A DNA stretch of 64,000 bases from NCBI RefSeq assembly GCF_050320075.1, contig NZ_CP190018.1; one strand, written 5' to 3'. The notes beneath the pieces are model-generated. The model did no database searches and was not told the origin of the DNA. It was given only the letters and a program-made list of their open reading frames with translations. This DNA is from Escherichia coli (GTDB taxonomy: Bacteria; Pseudomonadota; Gammaproteobacteria; Enterobacterales; Enterobacteriaceae). The position numbers and the translations under genes are program-made. This document shows positions 7,011 to 47,780 of the stretch, piece after piece. Position 1 is the stretch's first letter; each line of letters opens with the position of its first letter.

Positions 7011-10000
7011 TTAGTCATTTTGTTGACAGAAAACAGCTATCTCCTGGTCCAGCTCTGCAATGTGTTCTTTAACAGAGTTCAGCAACTTAAGAATTTCAGG
7101 CTTACTGTCATCTGAAACAGGTGTTATTTCTAACTGATGGCTAATATTAATCAACTTTTGCAAATTGAGGATGTTAGCCGCACCGTGGATGCGATGAATA
7201 CACTGATGGAAAGTTCTGTTGTCGCCAGCTTCTAGTGCATGAAACGCAGCGGGTAGATCTTTATGCGTTTCATGCTGGAAAGTCATGAGAATCTCCTGCA
7301 TCAGTTGTAGATCGTTCGCCGTATTATTTTTCAGGGCCTCGATATCAAGGTGGCGATACTGAGGTGCAATAGGCGCAACCTGGTGTAACTGACTTAAATG
7401 TGTTTTCAGTACATCCAGGGTCAACGGTTTGAACAAACATAAGTTCATGCCGCAATTTAACCCTTTTTCACGTTCGTTAGCCTGTGCGTTGGCTGTAAGC
7501 CCCCAGATGGGTAAGGAAGAATTTTGCTCACGGAGTTTGCGAGTCAACTCAAAACCATCCATATTCGGCATATTAACGTCAGTAATAAGCAGATCATAAT
7601 GTTGCATACTGACTTTGTGTAGCGCTTGCACACCATCAGTTGCTTCATCAACATCATATCCTAATAGGTTTAGCTGGCGTTTGAGTAATAGCCTGTTGGT
7701 CGGATGATCATCCGCGATTAATATGCTCAACTTTTCAGGGAGTGTCATGGGTTGTTCTGCTTTTGCCTCGACAGCCGCCACTTGTTGGGTAATTTCTACC
7801 GGGATTGTGATCGTAAATGTCGTTCCTATGCCTGGATGACTTTCTAATGACAAATCGCCCTGCATGTTTTTAATTAATTCTTTGCAGATCATTAAGCCTA
7901 AACCAGAACCTGTTTGCTGACGACCTGCACTTGTTTGGCTATAGCGTTTAAACAGTTGTTGTTGTTCTTCCTGCGATAATCCACTTCCAGAATCCATAAT
8001 CGTCATTTTGATAACAGCGTGGTTGTCATCAATGTCACCCAGGGAGGTCGTAATTTTTACTGCCCCCTCGGTAGTAAATTTAAGAGCATTGCTCAGTAAA
8101 TTAGATAAGACCTGCTTAAACGCCTGAGGGTCGATCTTAACCTGGTAATGTTCTGGAAACGTACTGCTGCAACTTAATGCGATGGATTTGCTTGCAGCAA
8201 TCGCACCGAAAGAATGACAAGTGTTCTGGACTAAAGTAGGGATATCGACCCATTGTGGTTGAAGTTGATAGTTACCCGATTCAATTTTGTCGACATCAAG
8301 GATTTCACCAATTAAGCCGAGGAGTGATTGTCCGGTGGCGTAGGCAAGTGAAATCGCCTCCACCCGTTGCTCCTTGCTAAGACCAGAACCCGACAGAAGT
8401 TCCAGGAAGCCCATAATGGAGCTTATTGGTGTTCTTATTTCGTGACTCATTGTTGCCAGAAACTGGCTTTTTGCGACAGTTGCATTGATCGCTTTATTTC
8501 TCTCTACCTCGAGTGCATGAATTAAATCACGCGTCTCGGTAATATCTTGCCAACCACAAATATAAACAGCATGATCGCTGGCTGGCAGATTGCATAATGT
8601 ATGCCAGTGGTTAATGCATCTTTTCTCGATGCCATTATCAATTTCAAATACCTGTGTGTATATTGTTCGATTTTCTTTCGTTTCTGCTGTGACTTCATGC
8701 GCATTAGAAAAAACATCTTTAAAGGGTGAGTCACTGTTTTCTAATGGTAACATTGCATTTTTGTAGTAATCCGCAGTGAAATAATGTTCAAAAGCACTAT
8801 TATGACTAATGACATTACCTTGCCAGTTTACAACATAAGTTGGATTCGGTAAGGAATCCGAGAGTGCTTTTCGGAATGATATTTGGTTTTCTAAATCACC
8901 CTGAATGACTTTACGACGACGAACTGAGCGTAACAGGTAGAATCCCCATAAAAGGCTACTGCCAACTAATAAAACGGATAATGTCGTGACAATATAAAAT
9001 TGCTCGCTATAGAGGTCCCATGTGTCAATGGTCACATTGGGCATTTTAATCCATTTTTCCGTCAGGCGCAGAACTTCGCTTGGGGGAATTGCATTCAGTG
9101 CTTTATTAATAATATCCTTAAGTTCCGGTTCTCCGCGAGGAAAAGCGAACGAAAGCGATGCATTCGGAACGCCGGGAATAAGAAAATGATAAAGTTCATT
9201 AGGATAGTAATGGTCGATCATGTAACGTGAATTTAACTGTGTCGCGACCAGAGCATCAAGTTCGCCTTCCTTGACCTTGTGAAATGCAGCGCTGGCGTTA
9301 TCGACTTTTATCCACTCTACCTCCGGATACATCTCTTTTAATTGCGAATGAAGCTCATAATAATAGGGAATGGCAACTTTCATTCCTTTTTTTAATGTTT
9401 GTTCACTGTCAGGCGCTTTTTGCATGACAAAAACGTAAGGCGTTGTTATGAAGGCTTCAGCAAATAAAACATTATTTTCTCTATCTTCACTATAAATAGC
9501 GGCGGGCAATATATCCCATCCACCGGGGTTAAGCTGTGTCCCCGCATGAATATTGTGTGAAACGGTGATCGGAGAAAAATTTAAACCTGTTTGCAAGGTA
9601 ATAATATTAAGAATATCACCCATCACGCCCCGAACTGAGCCAGTTTCATCTGTCATAGAATAGGGTGGCGAGTAAGGATTTTCCAGCACCTTTAAATCGG
9701 GATGCTGCTTAATCCACTGTTTTTCATGTTCAGTGAGTTCTAATGGTTTGTTCAGAAAGGCCAGGTTTCCTGTATCAAGCCAATTTTGTGATACTTCATA
9801 GCGAACTTCATTTGTTAAAGCATCAACAAACCGATTGAGTACTTCATTAAGAACGACTGAATCTTTTCTGGTTAAGAAAAAGTTATATTGACGCGGCGAG
9901 TTATAATATTTCACTACATTTAAGGAGTGAGTGAAATAGCGGGAAATCATACTGCTGGTAATAATGTTACTACCAATAAAGTAATCATTCTGTCCGGCTG

Positions 10001-44394: not shown

Positions 44395-46467
<2,073 letters not shown>

Positions 46468-46476
46468 CTATTAATC

Positions 46477-46511
46477 GTCTGATCGGACTTGTTCGGCGTA
46501 CAAGTGTACGC
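46477..46511. promoter_or_regulatory. fabB promoter FadR site and adjacent FabR palindrome
   Basis: GTCTGATCGGACTTGTTC (FadR-like) followed by GCGTACA-AG-TGTACGC, a 7-2-7 palindrome typical of the FabR operator. Confidence 0.55.
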
Positions 46512-46559
46512 TATTGTGCCATTCGAAACTTACTATAGTGCGACTTACAGAGGTATTGA

Positions 46560-47780
46560 ATGAAACGTGCAGTGATTACTGGCCTGGGCATCGTTTCCAG
46601 CATCGGTAATAACCAGCAGGAAGTCCTGGCATCTCTGCGTGAAGGACGCTCAGGGATCACTTTCTCTCAAGAGCTGAAGGACTCCGGCATGCGTAGCCAC
46701 GTATGGGGCAACGTAAAACTGGATACCACTGGCCTCATTGACCGCAAAGTTGTGCGCTTTATGAGCGACGCATCCATCTATGCATTCCTTTCCATGGAGC
46801 AGGCAATCGCAGATGCTGGCCTCTCCCCGCAAGCTTATCAGAACAACCCACGTGTGGGCCTGATTGCAGGTTCCGGTGGTGGTTCCCCGCGTTTCCAGGT
46901 GTTCGGCGCTGACGCAATGCGCGGCCCGCGCGGCCTGAAAGCGGTTGGCCCGTATGTGGTCACTAAAGCGATGGCATCTGGCGTTTCTGCCTGTCTCGCC
47001 ACGCCGTTTAAAATTCATGGCGTTAACTACTCCATCAGCTCCGCGTGTGCGACTTCCGCACACTGTATCGGTAACGCAGTAGAGCAGATCCAACTGGGCA
47101 AACAGGACATCGTGTTTGCTGGTGGCGGCGAAGAGCTGTGCTGGGAAATGGCTTGCGAATTCGACGCGATGGGTGCGCTGTCTACCAAATACAACGACAC
47201 CCCGGAAAAAGCCTCCCGTACTTACGACGCTCACCGTGACGGTTTCGTTATCGCAGGCGGCGGCGGTATGGTAGTGGTTGAAGAGCTGGAACACGCGCTG
47301 GCGCGTGGTGCTCACATCTATGCTGAAATCGTTGGCTACGGCGCAACGTCTGATGGCGCAGACATGGTTGCTCCGTCTGGCGAAGGCGCAGTGCGTTGCA
47401 TGAAGATGGCGATGCACGGTGTTGATACCCCAATCGACTACCTGAACTCCCACGGTACTTCGACTCCGGTTGGCGACGTGAAAGAGCTGGCGGCTATCCG
47501 TGAAGTGTTCGGCGATAAGAGCCCGGCGATTTCTGCAACCAAAGCAATGACCGGTCACTCTCTGGGCGCTGCTGGCGTACAGGAAGCTATCTACTCTCTG
47601 CTGATGCTGGAACACGGCTTTATCGCCCCGAGCATCAACATTGAAGAGCTGGACGAACAGGCTGCGGGTCTGAACATCGTGACCGAAACGACCGATCGCG
47701 AACTGACCACCGTTATGTCTAACAGCTTCGGCTTCGGCGGCACCAACGCCACGCTGGTAATGCGCAAGCTGAAAGATTAA
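46560..47780 (+). CDS. fabB: 3-oxoacyl-ACP synthase I (KAS I)
   Basis: Track ORF 406 aa; condensing-enzyme fold with active-site Cys (SSACATS). Confidence 0.95.

Follow-up and report, generated by a model that had tools for sequence, protein, structure and literature searches.

In Escherichia coli K-12, the fabB promoter reportedly carries a FadR site and a FabR palindrome, which are said to have been described by Campbell & Cronan 2001, Zhang et al. 2002, and Feng & Cronan 2011 (cited through PMC4259882, PMC4537474 and PMC3896788). FadR activates fabB and is released by long-chain acyl-CoA, and FabR represses the gene (PMC4259882, PMC3896788, PMC11525553, PMC3462791, PMC4537474). FabR binding is modulated by unsaturated versus saturated acyl thioesters, and loss of fabR raises fabB expression in both E. 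coli and Salmonella (PMC3896788, PMC11525553, PMC4804515); FabR together with C18:1-ACP represses, and C16:0-ACP relieves this repression (PMC3896788, PMC11525553). FabR is the main regulator of fabB, FadR exerting the stronger influence on fabA (PMC3896788). At the E. coli fabA promoter, FabR overlaps the -10 and FadR overlaps the -40 region (PMC3462791). The E. coli FabR motif AGCGTACACGTGTTCGCT is available from PMC4273635 and also from PMC4804515, with ACAnnTGT as its core. As to binding, wild-type FadR shifts a 56-bp K-12 fabB probe, TCTATTAAATGGCTGATCGGACTTGTTCGGCGTACAAGTGTACGCTATTGTGCATTC, in gel-shift experiments and its W60G mutant does not, and in the W60G fadR mutant the expression of fabA and fabB is down 2-2.5-fold, with fabB-lacZ as the read-out for fabB (PMC4259882). 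The same probe is bound by FadR in a further study, where the FadR box and the FabR palindrome GGCGTACAAGTGTACGCT are marked on it (PMC4537474).

Results

Layout of the operator region

The region was read directly from the window, that is, the whole 64-kb stretch of DNA analysed (64,000 nt). A preliminary description had placed FadR-like and FabR-like sequences in front of fabB, and both strings were confirmed at their coordinates: GTCTGATCGGACTTGTTC occupies 46477-46494, and GCGTACAAGTGTACGC, whose 7-nt arms are fully complementary around a central AG, occupies 46496-46511. That the palindrome directly follows the FadR-like site was right to within one base, a single G (46495) lying between the two strings. 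The published annotation counts this G within the 18-bp FabR site, and C 46494 lies outside the canonical 17-bp FadR box; the boundaries adopted here (46477-46493 for FadR, 46495-46512 for FabR) are refinements only. The features of the region are as follows:

46477..46493, plus strand: FadR operator, a 17-bp activator-type box GTCTGATCGGACTTGTT, assigned by its match to the fabA and K-12 fabB boxes
46495..46512, plus strand: FabR operator, 18 bp, GGCGTACAAGTGTACGCT, containing a perfect 7+2+7 inverted repeat (46496-46511)
46489..46494, plus strand: putative -35-like hexamer TTGTTC of the fabB promoter, in the 3' half of the FadR box
46512..46517, plus strand: putative -10 hexamer TATTGT of the fabB promoter, its first base being the last base of the FabR site
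46560..47780, plus strand: fabB ORF, 406 aa, matching NCBIfam NF005935
44395..46401, minus strand: mnmC, a tRNA-modification gene and the divergent neighbour, matching NCBIfam NF002480 with 947 bits

The downstream ORF (46560-47780) is unambiguously FabB: its score with NF005935, the NCBIfam model for beta-ketoacyl-ACP synthase I, is 804 bits (cut-off 630). RefSeq labels the gene fabB, with the protein WP_000817178.1, both in a K-12-like strain and in the strain matching 321 bp around the operators, this latter strain being 100% identical over the matching 321 bp. According to the RefSeq starts, mnmC begins with a GTG at 46401 and fabB begins at 46560, which leaves a 158-bp intergenic region. 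Both operators lie 48-83 nt upstream of the fabB ORF, the FadR box ending 66 nt before the ATG, and the FadR box in turn is 75 nt away from the mnmC start codon on its left (46477 vs 46401).

Comparison with the K-12 fabB, fabA and fad promoters

The K-12 fabB promoter resembles that of the window in the gene it serves, the divergent mnmC, the distance to the start codon, and the sequence from CTGATCGG through the palindrome and TATTGTG. In the alignment with the K-12-like strain, positions 46479-46518 are identical, a span that takes in positions 3-17 of the FadR box, the complete FabR site, and TATTGTG. Set against the documented fabB sites, the earlier reading held: those of the K-12 probe (PMC4259882, PMC4537474) map exactly here and not elsewhere. 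The window departs from K-12 at the 5' edge of the FadR box or directly ahead of it, where three substitutions change AATGG (K-12) into ATCGT (window), box positions 1-2 being GT in the window and GG in K-12. It also carries one additional C after the -10 (GTGCCATTC), and its leader differs by one substitution and one missing base (CTCTATGTG in K-12, CTATAGTG in the window).

The E. coli fabA promoter (FadR box AACTGATCGGACTTGTT, FabR site AGCGTACACGTGTTAGCT) shows the same succession of FadR box, 1 nt, 18-bp FabR site, and TAnnnT -10. In both fabA and fabB, 2 nt separate the FadR box from the inverted repeat, and the 15-nt FadR core is identical; the palindrome, however, is imperfect in fabA (GCGTACA CG TGTTAGC) and perfect in fabB. 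The repressor-type fad operators (fadL, fadI, fadBA, and fadD) are likewise recognized by the FadR protein through boxes of the same 17-bp family, yet the fad-type boxes are closer to CTGGTCCGACC and are sited where binding blocks transcription, whereas the fab-type box carries CTGATCGGACTTGTT and sits at about -40, where binding activates. Two fad promoters with FadR sites also lie in the window, those of fadL (26957-26997) and fadI (27665-27681). The genes for the two regulators, fadR and fabR, map outside the 64 kb.

The FadR box

At 15 of 17 positions, the box at 46477-46493 agrees with that of E. coli fabA, AACTGATCGGACTTGTT, and with that of K-12 fabB, GGCTGATCGGACTTGTT, the mismatches being confined to positions 1-2. 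When the fabA box was searched with up to 3 mismatches allowed, it was the sole match in the 64-kb window (2 mismatches; 0.11 expected). In keeping with an activator-type FadR site, GTCTGATCGGACTTGTT is related to AACTGGTCCGACCTGTT and contains the fab-type core CTGATCGGACTTGTT. It lies upstream of, and overlaps, the putative -35, on the same strand as fabB, and the same placement was seen at 64 fabB and 49 fabA loci among the cross-species matches listed. A looser FadR core gave 12 matches in the window versus 3.4 expected, the fadL and fadI promoters among them. With a position weight matrix built from only five repressor-type fad sites, the box ranked 13th of about 128,000 positions, a moderate match, so that the matrix evidence alone is not convincing for it. 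As controls, the matrix recovered the fadL sites, which belong to its training set, and the fadI-proximal site, which does not and ranked third.

Binding of FadR to the window allele is predicted from its identity to the K-12 allele over box positions 3-17. Since box positions 1-2 and the bases just upstream vary freely among species, as judged from the cross-species matches and a 14-genus alignment, an effect of the 5'-edge changes of the window is unlikely.

Regarding the fad promoters of the window, two tandem FadR boxes, CACTGGTCTGATTTCTA (26957-26973) and AGCTGGTCCGACCTATA (26981-26997), lie on the minus strand and precede the fadL ORF (25531-26877, same strand) by 80-120 nt. Their sequences are those of the K-12 fadL sites used in published gel shifts, and they are the top two matches of the matrix, which was partly built from them. 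A further FadR-like box, ATCAGGTCAGACCACTT, at 27665-27681, 27 nt upstream of the fadI start (27708) and between yfcZ and fadI-fadJ, is probably the fadIJ operator, because it ranked third with a matrix that does not include it.

The FabR site

Searching both strands of the 64 kb for the FabR motif AGCGTACACGTGTTCGCT with up to 3 mismatches returned 46495-46512 as the sole match, compared to 0.05 expected from shuffles. The site, GGCGTACAAGTGTACGCT, agrees with the published motif at 15 of 18 positions (3 mismatches), and this 18-bp palindrome is the same as that marked on the K-12 probe. FabR sites were taken to be placed in front of fabA, fabB or yqfA; here the site is directly downstream of the FadR box (1 base apart), over the spacer and the -10 edge. 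The palindrome alone is unremarkable, since 4 perfect 7+2+7 inverted repeats were seen in the window versus about 3.9 expected; what carries the case is the specific sequence, the pairing of the two sites and their location in front of fabB, and not the palindrome itself. As for FadR, binding of FabR to the window allele is a prediction from sequence identity to K-12.

Promoter elements

The TAnnnT hexamer is fixed in position across genera, where it reads TATTGT, TAAAGT, TATCTT or TAGAGT in front of fabB and TATCCT or TAACCT in front of fabA. By analogy with fabA, TATTGT at 46512-46517 would be the -10 of fabB, with TTGTTC, 17 nt upstream, as a poor -35-like element (3 of 6 matches to TTGACA), and transcription would start at about 46524-46526. 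From such a start, the FadR box would extend from about -47 to -31 and the FabR site from about -29 to -12, positions which agree with the layout stated for fabA (PMC3462791). A consensus promoter scan returned no site with at least 9 of 12 consensus matches; this absence of a strong consensus promoter fits a weak, activator-dependent promoter, and decides nothing.

Conservation within E. coli

We then defined a 39-nt core (46479-46517), consisting of both sites minus the first two bases of the FadR box, plus the -10 hexamer. Of 5426 complete E. coli genomes, 5425 carry this core with an identity of at least 99%, and each of the six genomes listed matches it at 100% over all 39 nt. The surrounding 321 bp (46380-46700), used as a query, found a match in 5425 of the 5426 genomes, each time at the mnmC-fabB junction, with 90-95% identity in 5317 genomes (about 94% in most strains) and 100% identity to strain CFSAN061763.

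The 46380-46700 sequence itself represents a minority allele, as only 24 of the 5425 genomes match it with at least 99% identity; the FabB accession and the operator core are unchanged. On a larger scale, window positions 21,600-64,000 are collinear with strain CFSAN061763 except for small indels. Positions 20001-21600, about the first 1.6 kb of the compared stretch, are without match in the otherwise near-identical NZ_CP042899.1, which at this place carries the prophage integrase gene intS beside a tRNA-Arg, suggesting that the prophage content at the tRNA-Arg site differs between the window and NZ_CP042899.1.

Conservation across species

The composite arrangement was searched with the pattern CTGRTCNGACNTGTTNNGCGTACANNTGT in one genome per species, which gave at least 120 matches; as the set was chosen by the motif itself, it informs on specificity and on where the motif occurs, not on its prevalence among fabB genes. 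Among the matches listed, (i) a downstream ORF could be read for 114, of which 113 precede fabB (n = 64) or fabA (n = 49) and share its orientation, (ii) in a second tally, which comprised 66 fabB loci, the end of the motif is 46-67 nt away from the fabB start codon, (iii) the fabB matches include Escherichia, Citrobacter, Enterobacter, Yersinia, Serratia, and Rahnella, and also Pantoea, Erwinia, Photorhabdus, Xenorhabdus, Proteus, and Morganella, and (iv) the core CTGATCGGACTTGTT is present in 118 of 120, although 32 variants of the FadR core would have fitted the pattern. The single Vibrio match and the single Shewanella match among the loci listed are both upstream of fabA, in line with a published description of Vibrio and Shewanella fabB as devoid of a FadR site (PMC4537474). 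In the 14-genus alignment of the mnmC-fabB spacer, the composite operator with the TAnnnT hexamer is the sole long invariant block.

The only listed match whose readable ORF is neither fabA nor fabB was found in Acerihabitans arboris (locus L013, pattern at 9842-9870 when read in its own orientation). There, the operator CTGATCGGACTTGTTCAGCGTACACTTGTACGCT precedes a 190-aa ORF that by eye resembles an HxlR-type regulator, and which is followed by a ketoacyl-ACP synthase only 37% identical to FabB.

Alternative explanations

Both motifs might be chance resemblances in ordinary intergenic DNA to which nothing specific binds, as would suit the rank of the FadR box, only 13th with the fad-site matrix, and the number of perfect 7+2+7 inverted repeats, of which about 4 are expected per 64 kb and 4 were seen. 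However, each of the two specific motifs is unique in the window (0.05 and 0.11 expected), the stretch is identical to DNA reported to bind FadR, the core stays constant across 5425 of the 5426 E. coli genomes inside a more variable surround, and across Enterobacterales the composite motif, in the matches listed, stands almost only before fabA and fabB. A chance match was rejected on these grounds, and we give it practically no probability. Much the same holds for the palindrome being a hairpin (a terminator or an RNA element) or the site of another regulator rather than a FabR operator. The inverted repeat is indeed perfect, but its 2-nt loop is too short for stability, no T-run follows it and a terminator scan found nothing, and its position upstream of the putative start site would leave it outside the fabB mRNA. 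Moreover, its sequence is that of the published FabR site, and FabR footprints over precisely this palindrome are reported for K-12 in work cited by the literature (PMC3896788, PMC11525553, PMC4273635, PMC3462791). The hairpin or terminator was thus discarded for its loop, the missing T-run, its position outside the mRNA and its identity to the FabR site, and this whole family of explanations appears extremely improbable.

A more substantial question is whether the operators also, or mainly, control the divergent mnmC. A distance of 77 nt separates the mnmC start from the core motif (CTGATC..., 46479), both in the window and at 33 of the 64 fabB loci with a divergent mnmC, and this distance varies no more than that to fabB; distance variability therefore did not separate the two genes, that of mnmC being just as constant. 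In addition, a conserved block on the mnmC side, GCGCAAATTT (46456-46465), is separated from the FadR box by only 11 nt. Against a role centred on mnmC, the composite operator is also found before fabA, next to which there is no mnmC; additional bases set the mnmC-side block apart from the FadR box in Yersinia, Serratia, Rahnella, Photorhabdus, and Proteus; the operator-to--10 spacing is constant in all genera aligned; and control of mnmC by FadR or FabR is absent from the literature on these operators that was consulted. As the insertions fall on the mnmC side, the -10 spacing is fixed and fabA shares the operator, the operator belongs to the fabB promoter. Joint or main control of mnmC is accordingly judged highly improbable, and a putative additional effect of the operator on this gene unlikely. 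Conservation of the block GCGCAAATTT (46456-46465) and of a second one, GATCTTAAC (46433-46441), extends from Escherichia to Yersinia, Pantoea, and Erwinia. The minus strand of 46433-46465 contains TTGCGC-17 nt-TAAGAT, a plausible mnmC promoter that would stand back-to-back with the fabB promoter.

Discussion

Overall, we conclude with near certainty that this segment of an E. coli strain holds the operators of the fabB promoter. Both operators are known and already described, and the window stands apart only in two variable bases at the 5' end of the FadR box and in its leader, which differs by two 1-nt indels. The dual control of unsaturated fatty acid synthesis by FadR and FabR, which the preliminary description had expected from the paired sites, agrees with the literature (PMC3896788, PMC11525553, PMC3462791). 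In the account that follows, the sequence, the K-12 identity, the position and the conservation come from the present analysis, and protein binding, ligands and the direction of regulation come from published work.

A weak sigma-70 promoter (TTGTTC, 17-nt spacer, TATTGT) would be flanked and overlapped by two regulators. FadR, a GntR-family protein, would occupy 46477-46493, centred near -39 over the -35, and raise fabB transcription about 2-2.5-fold, presumably via contacts typical of activators that overlap the -35. Long-chain acyl-CoA derived from imported fatty acids would free FadR from the DNA, and activation would then be lost. FabR, of the TetR family, would bind 46495-46512, fill the spacer, touch the -10 hexamer and repress, more strongly with unsaturated acyl-ACP or acyl-CoA and more weakly with saturated acyl-ACP. 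Through both sites, the level of FabB, which limits the rate of unsaturated fatty acid synthesis, would be tuned to lipid supply and membrane needs.

One may ask whether the fab-type FadR box is fixed as one exact 15-mer, CTGATCGGACTTGTT, for reasons beyond recognition by FadR, the 15-mer possibly serving at once as a deliberately sub-optimal FadR site, a -35 element and a fixed-phase partner of FabR. By a minor extension of this idea, the minority allele of the window (GT at box positions 1-2 and the two 1-nt leader indels) would shift FadR affinity or fabB translation in the E. coli lineage concerned. We regard this proposal, with its extension, as speculative and rather doubtful.

As a promoter that ranks among the most thoroughly studied in bacterial lipid metabolism, the locus carries little weight as a discovery. 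Its value is one of calibration, both operators having been placed from raw sequence to within one base, and the cross-species scan shows the specificity of the composite motif for fabA and fabB. Given the exact conservation of the 39-bp core, FadR and FabR are expected to act on fabB in the strain of the window in the way they do in K-12.
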